A stretch of 64,000 nucleotides of DNA from contig JASLZX010000001.1 of NCBI GenBank assembly GCA_030754655.1, positions 91,059 to 155,058 of the forward strand, written 5' to 3'. Positions within the stretch are counted from its first letter, which is position 1, and every line of letters begins with the position of its first letter. The translations under genes were made by a program, and so were the position numbers. This document shows positions 2,911 through 12,181 of this stretch, in pieces. This DNA is from Candidatus Poseidoniia archaeon. GTDB lineage: Archaea > Thermoplasmatota > Poseidoniia > MGIII > CG-Epi1. The notes under the pieces are model-generated. The model did not search any database and was not told where the DNA came from. It was given only the letters and a program-made list of their open reading frames with translations.

Positions 2911-4473
2911 ATGGCCTCCTCGTATTCTGGCGAAGGGTCGAAGCTGCACGGGCTGGCGCCGATTATCGAGCGCATGCCGAGCATCACCAAGCCGGACGGC
3001 CACGTCCATTTCCGGACCAAGATGACCTGGACGCTTGGCATCCTGATTCTCTACTTCGCGCTGACCAACGTCACGATGTACGGCCTCGGCAGCGACACCG
3101 TCGACCTGTTCGTTCAGTACCGCGCCATCCTTGCCGGGGCATCGGGGAGCCTGATGCATCTCGGTATCGGGCCAATCGTAACCGGCTCGATTATCATGCA
3201 GCTTTTCACCGGCGCCAAGATTATCAACCTCAACCTGCAGGACGCCAAGGACAAGGCGATCTACCAGGGCACCCAGAAGGTGCTGGTAGTGGTGATGATT
3301 TTCGTCGAATCCATCCCGCAGGTCTTCGGCTTCCTCGAACCCAGCGCAACCGTCGTCGGCGAGCTCGGGCTGACGTGGGCCCGCATGGCAATTATCACTC
3401 AGCTGATTATCGGCTCGTATCTTGTGTTCCTGATGGACGAGGTTGTCTCCAAATGGGGCATCGGCAGCGGCATTTCCCTCTTCATCGCCGCTGGTGTCAG
3501 CCAGGCGCTCTTCACCGGCACCCTCAACTGGGAGCCGGCGCCCGGGACGACCGACCCCAACTCGCCGCCGACCGGGACCATCCCGATGGTTATTTGGTAC
3601 ATCATGAACTCCTCATCGCGCGAGCTGATGCAGGGGGGCTACGAGGCGATGCTGTTGGCACCGCCCAATCCGGTCGTCGCGCTGGTCGGGACACTCGTCG
3701 TGTTCTTCGTCGTGGTGTATGTCGAGTCGTCGCGCATCGAACTGCCGCTGGCACACGGACGCGTCCGCGGCGCGCGCGGACGCTACCCCATCCGGCTGAT
3801 TTACGCCAGCAACATCCCAGTCATCCTGATGGCGGCGCTGCTCGCCAACGTCAACATGTTCGCGATGCTATTCTGGTCGCACCCGACGATGTCCAAATGG
3901 CCGATTATCGGGCATAACTGGATGATCGGCGCTTTCGACGTCAGCCAAGGCAACCCGGTCCCGACCATGGGTGCTGCCTACTACCTCAACCGTATCAACG
4001 GCATGCAGGACTGGTTCCTGCCGCTGGCGAGCCCCAAATACGAGAGCTACATGATTATTGGTGGCGTGAGCCACGAGCCATACCAGCTGGTGTTGCATAT
4101 TATCGTCTACATGGGCGTTATGATTCTGGGCTCAATGATGTTCGCTAAGTTCTGGATTGAAACTACTAACATGGGGCCACAAGCGGTCGCCAAACAAATT
4201 CAGGGCTCGGGGATGCAGATTCCTGGCTTCCGGCGCGACCCGCGCATCGTCGAGAAGGTGCTTGAGCGGTACATCCCGACGGTGACTGTCTTCAGTGGCG
4301 CAATAGTGGGACTGCTCGCTGCGGGGGCAGACATGGTCGGCACCACCGGGCAATCGTCCGGAACAGGGGTATTGCTGACTGTTGGCATCATGATACGCAT
4401 GTACGAACAAATCGGCAAGGAGCAGATGATGGAAATGCATCCGGTCCTGCGACAGTTTTTCGGCGAGGAGTGA
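2911..4473 (+). CDS. secY: Preprotein translocase subunit SecY
   Basis: Ten-TM protein with the archaeal SecY N-terminus (MASSYSGEGSKLHGLAPIIERMPSITKPDGHVHFRTKMTWT…). The track ORF begins at 2740. I prefer the ATG at 2911 by alignment to archaeal SecY N-termini; 2872 is an alternative. Confidence 0.85.
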   Translation: MASSYSGEGSKLHGLAPIIERMPSITKPDGHVHFRTKMTWTLGILILYFALTNVTMYGLGSDTVDLFVQYRAILAGASGSLMHLGIGPIVTGSIIMQLFTGAKIINLNLQDAKDKAIYQGTQKVLVVVMIFVESIPQVFGFLEPSATVVGELGLTWARMAIITQLIIGSYLVFLMDEVVSKWGIGSGISLFIAAGVSQALFTGTLNWEPAPGTTDPNSPPTGTIPMVIWYIMNSSSRELMQGGYEAMLLAPPNPVVALVGTLVVFFVVVYVESSRIELPLAHGRVRGARGRYPIRLIYASNIPVILMAALLANVNMFAMLFWSHPTMSKWPIIGHNWMIGAFDVSQGNPVPTMGAAYYLNRINGMQDWFLPLASPKYESYMIIGGVSHEPYQLVLHIIVYMGVMILGSMMFAKFWIETTNMGPQAVAKQIQGSGMQIPGFRRDPRIVEKVLERYIPTVTVFSGAIVGLLAAGADMVGTTGQSSGTGVLLTVGIMIRMYEQIGKEQMMEMHPVLRQFFGEE

Positions 4474-5102
4474 TGGCGCGCGTCATCGGCGGCTCGACCA
4501 TCGGTGAGGGCTGCTTTCTGGACCGCGACGTCGTCATCGGCTACCCGCCAGGCGACGAACTGCCTCTGCTCGGCAGCGACCGTGAAGCGGAAATCACGGG
4601 CGCGGCCGTCGGCGACAACTGCACGCTACGAGCCGGGACGCTCTACTCCCGCGCGCGGCTCGGCAGCAGCGTGCGTAGCGGCCACGGCTGGCTGGTGCGC
4701 GAAGACTCAACCGTCGGCAACGGTTGCCTGATTGGGACCGGCGTCACCATCGACAACGACTGCCGTGTCGGCGACCACTGCAGCTTGCAGACCGGCGTCT
4801 ACATCCCCACCGGCTCGCGCATCGGTGACCGCTGCTTCCTTGGCCCCAACGCGACGCTTACCAACGACCGCACCCCGCTGCGGACCGACTATCGGCTCGA
4901 GGGCGTTACGCTGGGCGACGACGTCACCGTCGGCGCCAATGCGACGCTGATGCCAGGTATCAGCGTCGGCGAAGGTGCGTTCATCGCCGGCGGCGCGGTC
5001 GTTACGCGCGACGTGCCCGTCTGGAAGATGGCGGTCGGCGTCCCGGCGCGGATTGTGGATTTGCCGGAAAACCTGAAGAAGCCCAACCGGCTCGGTGAGT
5101 GA
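4470..5102 (+). CDS. Hexapeptide-repeat (left-handed beta-helix) acyl/acetyltransferase
   Basis: Repeated [LIV]-G-x-x-x-x hexapeptide motifs (VGDNCTLRAG, VGNGCLIGTGVTIDNDCRVGDHCSLQTGVYI, VGANATLMPGISVGEGAFIAGGAVV). Its start overlaps the secY stop (4470/4473) and its stop overlaps the adk start (5099/5102). Confidence 0.7.
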   Translation: MMARVIGGSTIGEGCFLDRDVVIGYPPGDELPLLGSDREAEITGAAVGDNCTLRAGTLYSRARLGSSVRSGHGWLVREDSTVGNGCLIGTGVTIDNDCRVGDHCSLQTGVYIPTGSRIGDRCFLGPNATLTNDRTPLRTDYRLEGVTLGDDVTVGANATLMPGISVGEGAFIAGGAVVTRDVPVWKMAVGVPARIVDLPENLKKPNRLGE

Positions 5103-6707: not shown

Positions 6708-7283
6708 TCAACTGGAGATGGAGAGCGAAAGCCGCTCCACCCGCAGGATTTCGCCATCGAAATTCTGCTCGTCGAACCGCTCGCGTTCCCAGCCCTCCGG
6801 CAGCTCGCCCATCAAGCTCGAGAGCAGCAGCCACACCCCACCACCCGGCCGCAGGTGGCGCGGCGCCCCAGTGAGCAGTTGCTGAGTGAACTCGGTGCCA
6901 GTCGGGCCGCCTTCGACCGCCAGCGCCAACCAGCGGTCGTCGTATTCGCCGCCCGGCGGCAGGTAGGGCGGGTTGCAAACAATGGCATCGAAGCGGCGGT
7001 CGCCGACCGGCTCGAACAGGTCGCCTTGCAAGAACTCGATGTGGTGCCCTGCCACCCGGGCGTTCCGCCGCGCCAGCGCGATGGCGTGCGGGTTCAGGTC
7101 GGTCGCGGTGACCACTCCCCCGAGCGCGGCGAGCGTGAGCGCGACGATGCCGCTGCCGGTGCCCAGCTCTAGGACGGCGCCGCGCAGCTCGGGGAAGCGC
7201 GTCGCCGCGCGCTCGAGTGTGGCACAGAGCAGCCAGCTGTCTTCGGCCGGCTCGTAGACGCGGCCGTCCTTGCGAAGGTTCAC
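6708..7283 (-). CDS. HemK/Mtq2-like N5-glutamine (release-factor) methyltransferase
   Basis: SAM-binding motif LELGTGSGIVAL and catalytic NPPY (IVCNPPYLP). 191 aa, typical of archaeal Mtq2-like enzymes. Confidence 0.7.
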   Translation of the reverse strand: MNLRKDGRVYEPAEDSWLLCATLERAATRFPELRGAVLELGTGSGIVALTLAALGGVVTATDLNPHAIALARRNARVAGHHIEFLQGDLFEPVGDRRFDAIVCNPPYLPPGGEYDDRWLALAVEGGPTGTEFTQQLLTGAPRHLRPGGGVWLLLSSLMGELPEGWERERFDEQNFDGEILRVERLSLSISS

Positions 7284-7331
7284 GACGCGGCAGCGGTATA
7301 GTTATATAACCAATTGTGCAAGGCTATAGTA

Positions 7332-8102
7332 ATGGCCTGGAAGAAGGAGAACAAGCCGGCGCAGTTCCTGCTCTCGATTACCGCAGCGCACGGCGACGAC
7401 TGGGCAGCGCTCAAAACTTCGGCCGCCGAACAGGGGCGGCCGGTCAGCGAGCTGGTGCGTGAAGCGATTTCCGACAAGGTCGGCACGGGCGAGCCGCGCC
7501 GCGCGCTGGTGCTGAGCCCGCACACCGACGACGCCGAACTGGGGTGCGGCGGGACCATCGCCAAGCTGGTCGAGCGCGGCTGGTCGGTGCACGTCATCTA
7601 CTTCAGCGCGGTCGCCGAGCGGTATCCCGACCTGGCCGACGAAGCTGCGGCGTCGGGAAAAATCCTAGGCGTCACGCATGAGATCCTTGATTTCTACACC
7701 CGCCAGTTCCCGCGCGACCGGCAGGAAATACTGCAGGCACTCTGCGACCATTCGTGCCTGCGCAGCTACGAACTCGTGTTTACGCCGGCGACGACTGACA
7801 TCCACCAGGACCATGGCGTCGTGACCGCCGAGGCGCTACGCGCCTTCCGGAATTGCACGCTGCTCGGCTACGAGCTGCCGTGGAATAATCTCGAAATCGA
7901 GCTCAACTGCTTCATCTCGCTCGAGGAGCGGCACGTGCGCAAGAAGCTCAAGGCGCTCGACTGCTACGACAGCCAAAAACACAACCCCTACTTCGACCCC
8001 AAGTTCTTCCGTTCCGTAGTCCGCATGCGCGGAGTCCAGCTCGCGGTGCCGTATGCCGAAGGCTTCGAGACGCTGAAGGTGCGGCTGGACGGCATGCTGT
8101 GA
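7332..8102 (+). CDS. LmbE/PIG-L family N-acetylglucosaminyl deacetylase with N-terminal ribbon-helix-helix-like domain
   Basis: LmbE signature ALVLSPHTDDAELGCGGTI plus downstream HQDH. The N-terminal 45 aa (KKENKPAQFLLSITAAHGDDWAALKTSAAEQGRPVSELVREAISDKV) has a strand-helix-helix RHH pattern. A TATA-like tatagttatataa at 7297-7309 sits about 25 nt upstream of ATG 7332, suggesting a leaderless start. Confidence 0.7.
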   Translation: MAWKKENKPAQFLLSITAAHGDDWAALKTSAAEQGRPVSELVREAISDKVGTGEPRRALVLSPHTDDAELGCGGTIAKLVERGWSVHVIYFSAVAERYPDLADEAAASGKILGVTHEILDFYTRQFPRDRQEILQALCDHSCLRSYELVFTPATTDIHQDHGVVTAEALRAFRNCTLLGYELPWNNLEIELNCFISLEERHVRKKLKALDCYDSQKHNPYFDPKFFRSVVRMRGVQLAVPYAEGFETLKVRLDGML

Positions 8103-9247
8103 GCCGGGTCGCGATGCTGCTGGGGCACGACCTGCTCGAGCCGACCGTCGACACCCGCGTCTGGCGCGAGGCGCTCTCGCTCATTGGCGCCGGCTACGAA
8201 GTGACTGTTTTCTGCTGGGCGCGGCGCGACGATTCGCTGCCGGCCGAGGAAATCCGTGACGGCGTCCGCGTGCGCCGCATCTTCGCGTCGCTCGACAGCT
8301 GGCTGCCGGGGCGCATGTTGGCGTTCCGCAGTGCGATGCGGCAACTGGCCGAGGCGGCCGCCGATGAGCTGCCGGCGGTGGTGCACGCGCATGATCTGGA
8401 GACGCTGCCGGCCGCCTGCCGGGCGGCCGACGCGTGCGACGCGAGAGTCGTCTTCGACGCGCACGAGGACTGGCCGCTGCTCGAGTGGGTGCAGGGGGCG
8501 GCGCTCGGCGCCTGGTTCGGCTGGCAGCAGCGCCGCTGGCTGCCGCGCGCCGATACGGTCGTGACCGTCTCGCCCGAGCTGGCGAAGCGGCTCGGCGGGG
8601 CGGAGGTGCTCTACAACTCCGAGCCGCTGGCGGTCGTCGAGGCGGCCGCGAGAGAGGACTTGCGCGCGAAACTGGGGCTTGGCGGAGTCGTCGCAGGCTA
8701 CATCGGCGCGCTGCGGCGGCGGATTATCGAGCAGTTGCTCGACGACGCCGCGCAAGTCCCGGAGGTTACGCTACTGGTCGTCGGCGGCCCGCCGAAGGGG
8801 CGCGCCGGCTACGCCGGGCTGCAGGAGCAGCTCGAGACGTATGCCACCAAAGTTGGTGCGCGGGCGGTCTTCACCGGCCCGCTGGCGTACGACCGCATGG
8901 GCGACTGCTACCGCGCTTGCGACCTGCTGCTGGTCGGCCACTATGTTGCCGAGCCGTTGCGGCACGCCGCCGTCCCGAAGAAGCTACTCGACGCGATGGC
9001 CTACTCAATCCCGGCCGTGGTCGGCCCCTACGAAGCGCGCCGCTCCATCGTCGAGCGCCACCGCTGCGGGCTGGTCGCCGACGACTGGCTGGCGCCGCTG
9101 CGCAAACTGGCGGGCGACGGCGAGCAGCGGCGCGAAATGGGCCTGCGCGGGACCGCCGCATGGCGCGAAAAATACTGCTGGGACCACATGGAAGAGCGAC
9201 TGCTGGCGCTCTACGCGGGGCTGCTGGCAACAGCGGAGGTGCCGTGA
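8099..9247 (+). CDS. GT4-family glycosyltransferase (GT-B fold)
   Basis: 382 aa with typical GT4 C-terminal features (…EPLRHAAVPKKLLDAMAYSIPAVVGP…GLVADD…). The GTG start overlaps the LmbE stop. Confidence 0.7.
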   Translation: MSRVAMLLGHDLLEPTVDTRVWREALSLIGAGYEVTVFCWARRDDSLPAEEIRDGVRVRRIFASLDSWLPGRMLAFRSAMRQLAEAAADELPAVVHAHDLETLPAACRAADACDARVVFDAHEDWPLLEWVQGAALGAWFGWQQRRWLPRADTVVTVSPELAKRLGGAEVLYNSEPLAVVEAAAREDLRAKLGLGGVVAGYIGALRRRIIEQLLDDAAQVPEVTLLVVGGPPKGRAGYAGLQEQLETYATKVGARAVFTGPLAYDRMGDCYRACDLLLVGHYVAEPLRHAAVPKKLLDAMAYSIPAVVGPYEARRSIVERHRCGLVADDWLAPLRKLAGDGEQRREMGLRGTAAWREKYCWDHMEERLLALYAGLLATAEVP

Positions 9248-9273
9248 ATAACCCCGGGGTGGCTAGCGGCGCG

Positions 9274-10284
9274 ATGCGGATCCTGCTGACTGGCGTCGGC
9301 TGCCCCGGCGCGCACGCACTCATCACCAGCCTGAAACGGCAGTCGCCCGAATTGTGGATTGCTGGCACCGACGCTTCCCCTCAAGCGATTGGCCGCTGGC
9401 TCTGCGACGACTTCGCGCAGGTACCATGGGCACACGACGAGGGATACGTTGACGCTGTCGTTGAGCTGGCGCAGCGCTGGGAGGTTGAGGTGGTGTTCCC
9501 GCAGACGTCATGGGAGATGTTCGAGCTTTCCAAGGCAGCAGACCACTTCGAGGGTGTGGCGACGCTGCTGGCGTCGCCACACGAACAGGTCGCCGCGTGC
9601 GAGGACAAATTCGCGATGTATGACGCCCTGAAGGGCAAAATGGAACTGCCGCGCTACGGGCTGGTCCATTCACTAGCGGAGCTCGAGGCGACCGCCGCGG
9701 CGCTGGGCTACCCGGAACGCGACGTTGTCTTCAAGCCGCCGCGCGGCAAGGGTTCGCGCGGCGTGCGAGTGCTGACCGAGCATGCCGACCGCTACGAGCT
9801 GCTCTTCGAGGAGCGGCCGTTCGCACGCTACATCTCGCTGCAGGAATTGCGCACGACCGTTGGCGACCGCGAAATCCCGCCGCTGCTGGTAATGGAATAC
9901 CTCGAGGGTGAGGAGCATAAGATTGACCCTCTAGCGCGTGGCGGGGAGGTGCTGCTCGGGACCGTGAAACGGCGGCTCAACTACGCTTCGGGCCTGGCAA
10001 TGGGGTTCGAGATTATCGAGGCGCCGGAGCTGCTCGCGTATGGCGCCGAGGTGCTGCGCCATATCCCACTCGACTGGTGCGTCGACATCTCCACTCGCGG
10101 CGGGGTGCTAATGGAAATTAACCCGCGCGTCTCGACTTTTATCTACTCCGAAAACTGGTGCCCGCCCTGGCTGGCGCTACAGCTCGCGACCGGCCGTATC
10201 AGTGCTGACGAGGTGTGTGCGCGGCAGTCTGATGCGCCGGTCGGGACGCGCATGTTCCGCTACTACTGCCAGCAAGAATTCTGA
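9274..10284 (+). CDS. ATP-grasp domain ligase
   Basis: MRILLTGVGCPGAHALI… pre-ATP-grasp region followed by an ATP-grasp core (…DVVFKPPRGKGSRGVRVL…LLVMEYLEGEEHKIDPLARGGEV…MEINPRVS). The track ORF 8434..10284 is an out-of-frame upstream extension across the GT4 gene. GTG 9244 is an alternative start. Confidence 0.65.
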   Translation: MRILLTGVGCPGAHALITSLKRQSPELWIAGTDASPQAIGRWLCDDFAQVPWAHDEGYVDAVVELAQRWEVEVVFPQTSWEMFELSKAADHFEGVATLLASPHEQVAACEDKFAMYDALKGKMELPRYGLVHSLAELEATAAALGYPERDVVFKPPRGKGSRGVRVLTEHADRYELLFEERPFARYISLQELRTTVGDREIPPLLVMEYLEGEEHKIDPLARGGEVLLGTVKRRLNYASGLAMGFEIIEAPELLAYGAEVLRHIPLDWCVDISTRGGVLMEINPRVSTFIYSENWCPPWLALQLATGRISADEVCARQSDAPVGTRMFRYYCQQEF

Positions 10285-10322: not shown

Positions 10323-11165
10323 ATGTTCATCATCAGCGGCTCCACCCACCAACGGCTCGGAGTCGCGCTGGCGCAGGAAACTGGCGCCGAATTCTGCGGC
10401 GTCGTAAACAAGGCATACCCCGACGGGGAACGCTACGTCCGCATCCTGCGGCAGGTAAGCGGGCGTGATGTGGTGGTTATCCAGAACACTTTCCCCGACG
10501 AGAAAATCGTTGAGCTTCTGCTGCTGCTCGAGGCCATCCACGAAGCTGGGGCCGCGTCGGTGACGACCGTCATCCCCTACATGGGTTACGCACGGCAGGA
10601 GCGCATCTTTCAGGAGGGTGAGACCATCTCCGCCCGCGCCGTGGCGCGCCCCATTGGGATGCGCAGCGACCGCGTCCTGACGGTCTCGGTCCACACACCA
10701 GATGTACTCGACTTCTTCGGCTGCCCTGCCGAGGATGTCGACGGGTTGCGCGAGGTGGTCCACTACCTGAAGGGCTTCACGCCGGGACTTGTAGTCGCAC
10801 CCGATGAGGGGGCGCGCGAGCGATGCTCCATCGCCGCCAAAGAACTGAAGGCGCCACTGCACGTCATGTCCAAGACCCGGCTGGACGACCGCACGGTCGA
10901 GACCGACTCGGGTAGGGTTTCAGTGAAGGGGCAGACTGTCGTAATCCTCGATGATATCATCTCCACCGGTGGGACTATTGCGTCGTCGGCGCTGCTACTC
11001 AAGGACTGGGGTGCCAGCCAGGTGCTGGCAGCGTGCACCCACGGGCTGTTCATCGAGGACGCCGCCAACCGGCTGCGGGTCTGCGACGACATCCTCAGCT
11101 CCGACACGCTCGAGGGTGTCTACACCCGCTACTCGGTCGCGCCCGCCATCGCCGCTGCGCTCTGA
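10323..11165 (+). CDS. prs: Ribose-phosphate pyrophosphokinase (PRPP synthetase)
   Basis: PRPP-binding loop VVILDDIISTGGTIAS with typical N-terminal and flexible-loop regions. Confidence 0.85.
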   Translation: MFIISGSTHQRLGVALAQETGAEFCGVVNKAYPDGERYVRILRQVSGRDVVVIQNTFPDEKIVELLLLLEAIHEAGAASVTTVIPYMGYARQERIFQEGETISARAVARPIGMRSDRVLTVSVHTPDVLDFFGCPAEDVDGLREVVHYLKGFTPGLVVAPDEGARERCSIAAKELKAPLHVMSKTRLDDRTVETDSGRVSVKGQTVVILDDIISTGGTIASSALLLKDWGASQVLAACTHGLFIEDAANRLRVCDDILSSDTLEGVYTRYSVAPAIAAAL

Positions 11166-12181
11166 TGCACTGGGCCGGTCCGCTCTTTACACAAAGCGGC
11201 TTCATCGACGGGTGGTTCGACCCGGACCGCGGCGAAGAGGGCGAAGGGGCTCCACCCGGCGATGCGCTGGAAGGGCTCATCCTGCCACCGTTCCGCAACT
11301 GCCACACACACCTCGGCGACACGCTAGCGCGCGACGGAGCGCCCGACGCGTCGCTGGCGGAGCTGGTCGGTCCGGACGGTTTTAAGCACCGCTGGCTCGA
11401 AGAGGCGGACATCGCAGCCTCAATTGCGGCCGGACTGTGTGAGGCGGCCGCCAGCGGTACCGCACTGTTGCTCGACTTCCGAGAGGGTGGTGAAGCTGGT
11501 CTCGCGCAACTGGCGCAGGGCGCCGCGAACGCTGGGTGGGGCGTTGAGGAGGGGGCGCCGCAGGTGGTCCCGTTCGGCCGGGCCGCCGGGGGACGGCCGC
11601 TGCCGGGCCGCCACGTGGGGCTGCCCGGACTCACAGATATGCCAGTCGGCGCGGGACACCGCATGGCCCTCGAGGCGCGTGCCGCCGAGGGGCTGGTAGC
11701 GCTCCACTTCTCCGAAGGCGAGCGCGAGTCGGTCGAGCGCATGCTCGAACTGGAGCCAGACCTCCTGGTCCATCTCTGCCACGCCACGGAGGAAGACTTG
11801 CGCAGCATCGCGGATGCCGGCATCGGCGTTGTCATCTGCCCGCGCAGCAACGCGCGTTTCGGACTGAGGCCGCCGCTGGAGGAGCTGCTAGCACTGGGGG
11901 TCGATGTCGGGCTAGGGACAGATAATGGAATGCTGTGCACTCTCGATATGCTGGCGGAGCTGCGCTTCTGCCGTGAGACGTTCCCGAATGTGGCGCCGGG
12001 AACGCTGCTGCGAATCGCCTGTGGGGGATTGGATGAAACCCTTAAGAAGGCAGTAAAGTGCGACCGGAGTAGTCCCCTTCCGGCAGGGAGGATACTGGTT
12101 TCACAGCACGGGCCCGACCCACTGGAGGCCGTATTCGACCCGCAGGCAAAGGTGCTGGAAATGAGGTCTGGATGCGAATAA
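11165..12181 (+). CDS. Metal-dependent amidohydrolase superfamily protein (deaminase/chlorohydrolase-like)
   Basis: NCHTHLGD metal-binding HxH motif and C-terminal GLGTDNG. ATG 11165 overlaps the prs stop. The track ORF 11033.. is an upstream extension. Confidence 0.6.
   Translation: MHWAGPLFTQSGFIDGWFDPDRGEEGEGAPPGDALEGLILPPFRNCHTHLGDTLARDGAPDASLAELVGPDGFKHRWLEEADIAASIAAGLCEAAASGTALLLDFREGGEAGLAQLAQGAANAGWGVEEGAPQVVPFGRAAGGRPLPGRHVGLPGLTDMPVGAGHRMALEARAAEGLVALHFSEGERESVERMLELEPDLLVHLCHATEEDLRSIADAGIGVVICPRSNARFGLRPPLEELLALGVDVGLGTDNGMLCTLDMLAELRFCRETFPNVAPGTLLRIACGGLDETLKKAVKCDRSSPLPAGRILVSQHGPDPLEAVFDPQAKVLEMRSGCE

Follow-up and report, generated by a model that had tools for sequence, protein, structure and literature searches.

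What do a glycosyltransferase, a metal-dependent deacetylase and an ATP-grasp ligase make when they are encoded side by side in an uncultured marine archaeon, and why does the deacetylase begin with a domain that resembles a DNA-binding protein? These questions are raised by a three-gene cassette in a 64,000-nt stretch of the genome of a Candidatus Poseidoniia archaeon (assembly GCA_030754655.1, contig JASLZX010000001.1, positions 91,059 to 155,058), called the window below. Poseidoniales are among the most abundant archaea of the surface ocean and are uncultured; next to nothing is known about the chemistry of their envelope or about their small-molecule cofactors. The original prediction had described the cassette as a ribbon-helix-helix (RHH) domain fused to an LmbE-type deacetylase, followed by a GT4-family glycosyltransferase and an ATP-grasp ligase. 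This gene content was confirmed: three uninterrupted open reading frames (ORFs) on the same strand (+) span 7332-10284 and retain their catalytic motifs. Sequence comparison across lineages indicates that the conserved core is the LmbE/ATP-grasp pair, which occurs in both archaea and bacteria, and that the three genes form a functional unit.

Conservation of the module and its three enzymes

One genome per GTDB species was scanned with an ATP-grasp profile, which gave 80 loci, and tblastn was performed with the window proteins; linkage counts were restricted to the 71 loci having at least 900 nt on either side. LmbE (E <1e-20 to the catalytic domain of the window protein) was present in 61 of these loci, and an orthologous LmbE lay within 1.5 kb of the ATP-grasp gene in 58/71, archaeal and bacterial alike. 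In 44/71 loci the two genes directly adjoined each other on the same strand. The ligase thus keeps company with the deacetylase in relatives, as had been anticipated, and usually with a glycosyltransferase as well.

The pair was found in Poseidoniia, Bathyarchaeota, Asgard, Hadarchaeota, Thermoleophilia, Chloroflexota and Marinimicrobia, and its arrangement differed by lineage. All 15 Poseidoniia and marine group III (MG-III) loci with enough flank had the order RHH-LmbE, GT4, ATP-grasp, which is therefore no chance juxtaposition. Bathyarchaeota, Asgard (Prometheo/Heimdall), Hadarchaeota and Thermoplasmatales had ATP-grasp followed by LmbE, frequently with a 4-nt overlap, as in the bathyarchaeotal genes. 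The order GT4, LmbE, ATP-grasp was seen in Thermoleophilia, other Actinomycetota, Chloroflexota and a 'Thermotogae' metagenome-assembled genome (MAG), and the pair was also present in Marinimicrobia/Fidelibacterota. The cassette is not specific to archaea, for it also occurs in bacteria, for example in a polysaccharide cluster of the Wzy/Wzz type in Thermoleophilia. An apparent exception to the linkage is a clade at 46-48 % identity (L002, L025 and L026), in which at least one MAG has GT1-LmbE-GT4 elsewhere in its genome. In this MAG with the unlinked ATP-grasp, two sulfatase-family genes surround a gene of the 3'-phosphoadenosine 5'-phosphosulfate (PAPS) reductase family directly upstream of GT1-LmbE-GT4 (L089, 1637-4826; L090, 283-3472). 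Single-linkage clustering of crude ORF calls merged the GT4 and ATP-grasp families and took in antisense ORFs in high-GC loci, and was replaced by GC3-filtered calls.

The deacetylase domain matched Pfam PIG-L (PF02585) over residues 65-176 of the fusion with 62.9 bits against a cut-off of 28.2. P63-H64-T-D66-D67 and H158-Q-D160-H161, which are the metal-binding and general-base motifs of the family, were invariant in 40 sequences. The AlphaFold2 (AF2) model of the fusion had a mean predicted local distance difference test score (pLDDT) of 84.6, with the LmbE core above 90 in the Rossmann-like LmbE fold. The top Foldseek matches of this core were BC1534/BshB, TT1542, GalB and Dac, with E-values of 2e-13 to 1e-12 for BC1534, TT1542 and BshB. 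Alignment and model show a domain with the fold and the metal and catalytic residues of the family, which would deacetylate a presumed substrate. Dac (N,N'-diacetylchitobiose deacetylase) and TT1542, both soluble and with the LmbE fold, are similar in length and match closely in structure, but Dac serves chitin catabolism in another gene context. We know of no ATP-grasp partner for Dac or TT1542.

The third protein matched the Pfam families ATPgrasp_Ter (44.9 bits against a cut-off of 29.1), PylC-like_N and ATP-grasp_3. K154, E208 and E281-I-N283-P-R285, the EINPR Mg/ATP motif, were invariant in 56 ATP-grasp sequences. Its AF2 model (pLDDT 90.3) had the uncharacterised structure 2pn1 as best Foldseek match (1.7e-17), followed by the L-amino-acid ligases RizA and YwfE/BacD, and then by PylC, PurK and biotin carboxylases. 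With RizA, YwfE/BacD and PylC as its nearest folds, the earlier assignment to the carboxylate-amine ligase type was borne out. Its top matches in sequence and fold, together with a PylC-like N-domain and the EINPR motif, connect the protein with PRK12767 proteins/2pn1, L-amino-acid ligases and PylC. In contrast, no obligate LmbE pairing is known in these families, and the cassette ligase fell below all NCBIfam cut-offs for PRK12767, the best being NF009402 with 75.5 bits against 218.

The glycosyltransferase matched Pfam Glyco_trans_4_4 (61.3 bits) and Glyco_trans_1_4 (40.4 bits), both over the cut-off, and also Glyco_transf_4 and Glycos_transf_1. Its EX7E motif is replaced by E...P-K-K-L-L-D with a longer spacer, and P.K[LM][LF][DE] is kept across its whole subfamily. 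The GT4s adjoining LmbE in Poseidoniia, in the close relative L091, in L090, Thermoleophilia, Chloroflexota and the 'Thermotogae' MAG can be aligned from end to end and have the motifs H[AV]H[DE], D.HE and P.K[LM][LF][DE] in common. On account of this alignment and these unusual motifs, they form one subfamily, and this dedicated subfamily joins the LmbE/ATP-grasp pair in five lineages.

Candidate pathways were examined by family models of higher specificity. In the NCBIfam search, the deacetylase scored 51.7 bits with the BshB1 model (TIGR04001, cut-off 182.5) and matched no MshB model, and the glycosyltransferase scored 34.5 bits with the MshA model (TIGR03449, cut-off 462.5). No Pfam PIGA (PF08288) match to the glycosyltransferase was obtained at E up to 0.01. 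Membership in MshA/B, BshA/B or PIG-A was rejected on these grounds, and with it the earlier view of a MshA/BshA/PIG-A-like transferase and a deacetylase of the thiol or glycosylphosphatidylinositol (GPI) pathways. Because the specific models all failed their cut-offs, the cassette has superfamilies in common with mycothiol, bacillithiol and GPI-glucosamine (GlcN) synthesis and is not a member of these pathways. By motif and by model, all three enzymes appear catalytically intact, yet they stand outside every named pathway.

The literature search returned nothing relevant on the pairing of LmbE/PIG-L with ATP-grasp or on Poseidoniales glycosyltransferases or deacetylases, and PADLOC gave no defence-system match.

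A proposed N-acyl exchange and its alternatives

We tentatively favour, at slightly less than even confidence, the view that the operon carries out N-acetylhexosamine transfer, de-N-acetylation and ATP-dependent re-acylation of the amine, that is, an N-acyl swap on a glycoconjugate. The GT4 would first transfer an N-acetylhexosamine, probably N-acetylglucosamine (GlcNAc) from UDP-GlcNAc, to an acceptor. The LmbE domain would then strip the N-acetyl group and expose a free amine, and the ATP-grasp enzyme would convert a carboxylic acid to its acyl-phosphate and ligate it to this amine. The acid could be an amino acid or, going by the Asgard and Bathyarchaeota gene neighbours, a sulfo-acid such as cysteate. 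This three-step scheme is preferred because it is the simplest account of the near-obligate pairing of LmbE with ATP-grasp.

Gene context in relatives gives hints of what is made. The Wzy/Wzz-type cluster of Thermoleophilia encloses the trio together with extra GT4s, a second ATP-grasp and a DUF7033 protein. A UDP-GlcNAc 2-epimerase follows the ATP-grasp in Chloroflexota, and in Marinimicrobia, where a GT4 is also found, LmbE has an AsnB-like amidotransferase in front of it. The product is most likely a component of an envelope or cell-surface glycan or glycolipid; the Thermoleophilia setting is the reason for favouring an envelope glycoconjugate over a low-molecular-weight thiol.

Several points weigh against this proposal. 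The glycosyltransferase partner varies, with a small GT2 taking its place in Bathyarchaeota and Hadarchaeota, and in one lineage the ATP-grasp gene is unlinked from GT-LmbE-GT4. Importers of the ATP-binding cassette (ABC) type in the same operon (about eight loci) could signal salvage instead of biosynthesis, and the neighbours of the cassette in the window are housekeeping genes, with no further glycan genes close by. Relatives of all three enzymes came solely from MAGs and metagenomes, and none is characterised; a search for cultured hosts with the Thermoleophilia ATP-grasp likewise returned MAG and metagenome proteins only. As no characterised relative was found, we infer every substrate.

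The main chemical rival, which we consider unlikely, is that the ATP-grasp amidates a carboxylate, such as a hexuronic acid of a glycan, with an amine such as taurine, and that LmbE acts separately. Amidation of glucuronate by ATP-grasp enzymes has a precedent in the Campylobacter capsule. In Asgard loci (L035, L038 and L045), an operon divergent from Lrp-ATP-grasp-LmbE encodes a PAPS reductase (199 bits against a cut-off of 154), a cysteate synthase (549 against 325), a fused sulfopyruvate decarboxylase and a GT4-like protein; L035 has a second ATP-grasp downstream of LmbE. In Bathyarchaeota or similar loci (L001/L032 and L005-L007), ComD and ComE, both over cut-off, and a class-III aminotransferase lie beside the pair, and together with the Asgard genes these would provide a route to sulfoacetaldehyde and taurine. 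About eight other loci have an importer of the NitT/TauT type in the same operon as the pair, L031 having a sulfotransferase besides. These genes look like a sulfoacetaldehyde or taurine route feeding a glycoconjugate in non-methanogenic archaea, and the recurrence around the module hints at a link with C2/C3 sulfonates; a literature search on sulfopyruvate decarboxylase with ATP-grasp, or on cysteate synthase in Asgard, gave nothing relevant. However, amidation with taurine leaves the invariant, often translationally coupled LmbE/ATP-grasp pair unexplained, and no UDP-sugar dehydrogenase was seen adjoining the module. Neither sulfonate genes nor a Tau-type importer were found in the 64-kb window, and the sulfonate link is therefore not transferable to this organism.

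A low-molecular-weight GlcN-amide, for which we likewise see only a small chance, would be a soluble cofactor or thiol analogous to mycothiol and bacillithiol, with the GT4 glycosylating a small acceptor, LmbE removing the acetyl group and the ATP-grasp adding cysteine or another amino acid. The three-step logic is that of MshA/B/C and BshA/B/C: in those pathways, too, a GT4 and an LmbE-family de-N-acetylase with matching fold and metal motifs are followed by ATP-dependent ligation of a carboxylate to the freed GlcN amine. All three cassette proteins seem soluble and compact, the ATP-grasp fold is nearest to L-amino-acid ligases, and PAPS reductase, an enzyme of sulfur assimilation, recurs near the module. 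A review of archaeal thiols gives no thiol for the Poseidoniia group and makes no mention of the cassette. The Poseidoniia cassette stands alone among housekeeping genes, and this isolated position leaves room for a soluble GlcN-amide metabolite. On the other side, the scores lie far below the MshA, MshB and BshB1 equivalog cut-offs, the bacterial orthologues of the cassette lie within Wzy/Wzz polysaccharide clusters, and the ligases of the known thiol pathways are CysRS-like or have the BshC fold, whereas that of the cassette is an ATP-grasp. The pyridoxal phosphate-dependent enzyme beside the Asgard PAPS reductase is the cysteate synthase and not a cysteine synthase, and no thiol-dependent partner enzymes were seen.

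Salvage or catabolism is improbable in our judgement. In such a scheme, LmbE would hydrolyse an imported N-acyl compound (an N-acetylated amine or sugar), the ATP-grasp would re-ligate a product, and the glycosyltransferase would be loosely associated. In loci of Thermoplasmatales, Heimdall, Anaerolineae, 'Saccharibacteria' and Marinimicrobia, ATP-grasp/LmbE is indeed immediately preceded, on the same strand, by an importer made up of a substrate-binding protein, two permeases and an ATPase. In Poseidoniia, Thermoleophilia and Chloroflexota, however, the GT4 adjoins and the importer is missing, and the co-conserved GT4 subfamily speaks for a biosynthetic trio.

The least probable alternative is a GPI-like GlcN-lipid made by PIG-A-like and PIG-L-like enzymes on archaetidylinositol with an extra ligation: GlcN-archaetidylinositol exists in methanogens and the Pfam family of the deacetylase is named for PIG-L, but nothing else points to such a lipid, since the GT4 lacks the PIGA match and has sucrose-phosphate synthase as its sole PDB sequence match (6e-05), LmbE is nearest to soluble enzymes of the BshB/TT1542/Dac type, and the module is widespread in bacteria without archaetidylinositol.

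The N-terminal domain of the deacetylase and its promoter

The fusion of an RHH-like domain to LmbE in a single ORF proved to be genuine. Residues 1-54 are in frame with the LmbE core with no stop or frameshift between them, and more than 80 protein clusters, matching at 63-93 % identity over the full length, share this 256-aa layout. All Poseidoniia homologues keep the first 54 residues, which are missing from every more distant orthologue (about 200 aa). They are also missing from L091, a close relative with the same synteny, in which 46 nt separate the methyltransferase gene and LmbE. An AbiEii/AbiEi toxin-antitoxin pair is inserted between the EMC3-like and methyltransferase genes of L091 (3902-5370).

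The assignment of these residues to the RHH family stood only in part: the domain behaves as RHH in profile searches, but all matches are sub-threshold and the AF2 monomer lacks the ribbon. Searched alone, it gave sub-threshold matches to five Pfam RHH families, with RHH_1 at E 0.0032 and 17.8 bits against a cut-off of 20.5. A search of 1.84 billion representatives returned 30 proteins, which comprise fusion fragments and about ten standalone proteins of 48-77 aa, and once standalone homologues were included, 7 of 14 members of the domain family matched RHH_1. Comparison by hhalign with hand-entered sequences of classic RHH proteins gave a probability of 78.8 %, rising to 84.7 % with the standalone proteins, and aligned the strand, helix 1, the G-x-S turn and helix 2. 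A PDB profile search with the standalone homologues had the archaeal RHH DNA-binders ORF56 of pRN1 (E 0.002) and AvtR (E 0.012) at the top, while a narrower N-terminal profile without them gave only noise against the PDB. The AF2 monomer has helices at 18-34 and 38-51, and residues 1-17 are unstructured (pLDDT <50); such disorder is expected for a ribbon that would form only in the dimer and is no proof of it. Taken together, convergent but sub-threshold evidence points to a divergent RHH domain whose fusion to the deacetylase is confined to Poseidoniia.

Three known proteins are comparable. ORF56 and AvtR (AFV6) resemble the standalone homologues in size and in their setting on mobile elements or viruses, but in the cassette the domain forms part of a metabolic enzyme encoded by a cellular genome, and the E-values that connect them are only those given above. 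PutA is an RHH domain fused to proline-catabolic enzymes, and, like it, the cassette protein would be an enzyme with an N-terminal RHH domain that represses its own divergent promoter region. The enzyme part is unrelated to that of PutA, however, the domain family of the cassette is tiny and shared with a virus, and DNA binding is predicted here. One standalone homologue, P0377 (60 aa), lies on L092-L094, short contigs of small ORFs without Pfam matches that look like a mobile element; L092 has near-matches to the palindrome described next at 1853 and 2028.

The intergenic region at 7284-7331 contains a palindrome, a candidate operator. The region is conserved across Poseidoniia loci of widely differing base composition, whereas the flanking intergenic bases vary. 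In the 13 Poseidoniia loci with GGTTATATAACC, all of much lower GC, this 12-bp perfect palindrome is found at the same position and once per 15-kb locus. In the 64-kb window, the 10-bp core of the element at 7300-7311 is unique, and the 9-mer TATATAACC has one copy, in the cassette promoter, against 0.06 expected; the 15-kb host loci have no further copy. TATAGT, which matches the second element GGCTATAGTA, is also present at 7297-7302. The RHH-less L091 has a non-palindromic CTTAAATAACC and no second element.

Metagenomes were scanned for the 14-mer AAGGTTATATAACC. Among the 80 listed loci, 78 were unrelated chance matches, so the scan cannot define a regulon. The two loci that matched cassette proteins were a Poseidoniia cassette and a contig of small ORFs (L134) with a standalone homologue, which is 40 % identical to the domain and 100 % identical to a gene on the IMG/VR contig L215 (IMGVR_UViG_3300025086_000252). 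On the viral contig, TATATAACC occurs six times in 8.2 kb against 0.16 expected, a 40-fold excess that was reached in 0/200 shuffles, and two tandem copies lie directly upstream of the standalone RHH gene; on L134 these tandem sites are at 1895-1929. Copies apparently lie at the starts of several genes of this contig (L134 1-3900, L215), which also encodes ParB-like and PAPS-reductase-like proteins, judged by eye from the translation.

Domain and motif are thus common to host and virus, which suggests autoregulation. We infer from this pattern that TATATAACC-type sites are the targets of this RHH family and that RHH-LmbE controls its own operon. The domain would dimerise and bind a palindrome of this type overlapping the TATA box of its own leaderless promoter, and RHH-LmbE would act as a repressor or modulator of that operon, and possibly of the divergent methyltransferase gene too, in a PutA-like manner. 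The centre of the palindrome lies 26.5 nt before the LmbE ATG, and the palindrome must therefore double as TATA box of a leaderless transcript; its centre lies 22.5 nt from the methyltransferase start, and one symmetric TATA box may drive two divergent leaderless genes.

The spacing raises the possibility, less probable in our view though a serious contender, that the palindrome is just a TATA box of this shared, bidirectional kind and that the N-terminal domain is only an oligomerisation or scaffolding tail. Both distances fit such a shared box. Against autoregulation also count the RHH scores, all under the curated thresholds (17.8-19.5 bits for RHH_1 against 20.5), and the AF2 monomer, which forms no beta-ribbon and leaves residues 1-17 disordered. 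Against this view, archaeal RHH DNA-binders are the top PDB matches of the domain profile, and the standalone homologues are of RHH size. Nor does TATATAACC behave as a generic promoter motif in host loci; its excess is seen on the viral contig with the standalone homologue, two of the copies preceding the gene for this protein, and L091, which lacks the RHH domain, lacks both the symmetry and the second element.

Cassette layout, neighbourhood and significance

The features of the cassette are collected in Table 1. The closest loci had 91-93 % protein identity to the window, which was assigned to Poseidoniales (Marine Group II, Thalassarchaeaceae-like) and has a GC content of about 0.62-0.69.

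Table 1. Features of the cassette and its promoter region (window positions)
Feature	Position	Strand	Basis or remark
Divergent intergenic region, 48 bp	7284..7331	.	Between the methyltransferase gene and RHH-LmbE; promoter and putative operator
Palindromic TATA-like element AGTTATATAACC	7300..7311	.	GGTTATATAACC in 13 other Poseidoniia loci
Second element near the promoter, GGCTATAGTA, ending directly before the ATG	7322..7331	+	Upstream alignment; low-GC relatives read ATATATAAC(T)
RHH-like N-terminal domain, residues 1-54 of the fusion	7332..7493	+	Sub-threshold RHH profile matches
LmbE/PIG-L-family metal-dependent de-N-acetylase domain, residues 55-256 and stop	7494..8102	+	Pfam PIG-L, 5.5e-17
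GT4-family (GT-B) glycosyltransferase, distinctive subfamily	8099..9247	+	Pfam, both GT4 halves
ATP-grasp carboxylate-amine ligase, PRK12767/PylC-like type	9274..10284	+	Pfam, NCBIfam

The RHH-LmbE frame is open over 7314-8102 from a TTG at 7314, but sequence alignment places the start at ATG 7332, because all homologues begin with MxWKK and measure 256 aa. The GT4 gene starts with GTG 8099 and shares 4 nt with the end of the LmbE gene, stop codon included. The ATP-grasp frame is open over 8434-10284; its homologues begin with MRILLTG, which corresponds to ATG 9274, and the gene therefore starts 26 nt past the GT4 stop. The third gene, formerly described as overlapping, would do so (by 4 nt) only if the alternative start GTG 9244 were used.

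Upstream lie the genes for ribosomal protein S5, SecY, a hexapeptide acetyltransferase, adenylate kinase, an EMC3/DUF106 protein and the divergent methyltransferase. Downstream are those for phosphoribosyl pyrophosphate (PRPP) synthetase, an amidohydrolase, a CBS protein, glycyl-tRNA synthetase (GlyRS), topoisomerase VI-A, RadA, aIF5B and XPD. The methyltransferase (6708-7283, -) is small and of the MTS/PrmA type. The acetyltransferase (4470-5102, +) is NeuD/PglB-like and scored 91 bits with TIGR03570, under the cut-off of 160.8; its gene is wedged in between those of SecY and adenylate kinase, start and stop codons overlapping, an arrangement kept in Poseidoniia loci and L091. Crude ORF clustering placed similar hexapeptide-transferase ORFs near the module in L027, L029 and L031. 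By analogy with MshD in mycothiol synthesis, this enzyme could acetylate the cassette product. The chlorohydrolase/amidohydrolase-like ORF at 11033-12181 (+) scored 125.6 bits with PRK07213, under the cut-off of 294; as listed it has about 130 nt in common with the end of the PRPP synthetase gene, and its true start is probably further downstream.

In summary, what is new in these results is a cross-domain LmbE/ATP-grasp core module with a recurrent sulfonate association, and a fusion of enzyme and regulator that has its domain and motif in common with a virus; the biosynthetic logic itself is of a known kind. A combined view of enzymes and regulator, speculative and improbable as a whole, is that the product is a GlcN-amide small molecule or lipid head-group, possibly sulfonated or thiol-bearing, which would be a third family beside mycothiol and bacillithiol, that the Poseidoniia deacetylase doubles as a PutA-like, ligand-responsive repressor, and that domain and operator were exchanged with a virus. 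If true, a GlcN-amide family would be common to Poseidoniia, Asgard, Bathyarchaeota and uncultured Thermoleophilia, and one regulator would serve both host metabolism and viral promoters.

Identification of the product, perhaps a novel amino-sugar modification or a novel cofactor tied to marine sulfonate cycling, would annotate thousands of genes at once. RHH-LmbE offers a compact, testable case of an enzyme that would regulate its own operon, and the domain and motif that it shares with a virus suggest cross-talk at the regulatory level between host and virus.

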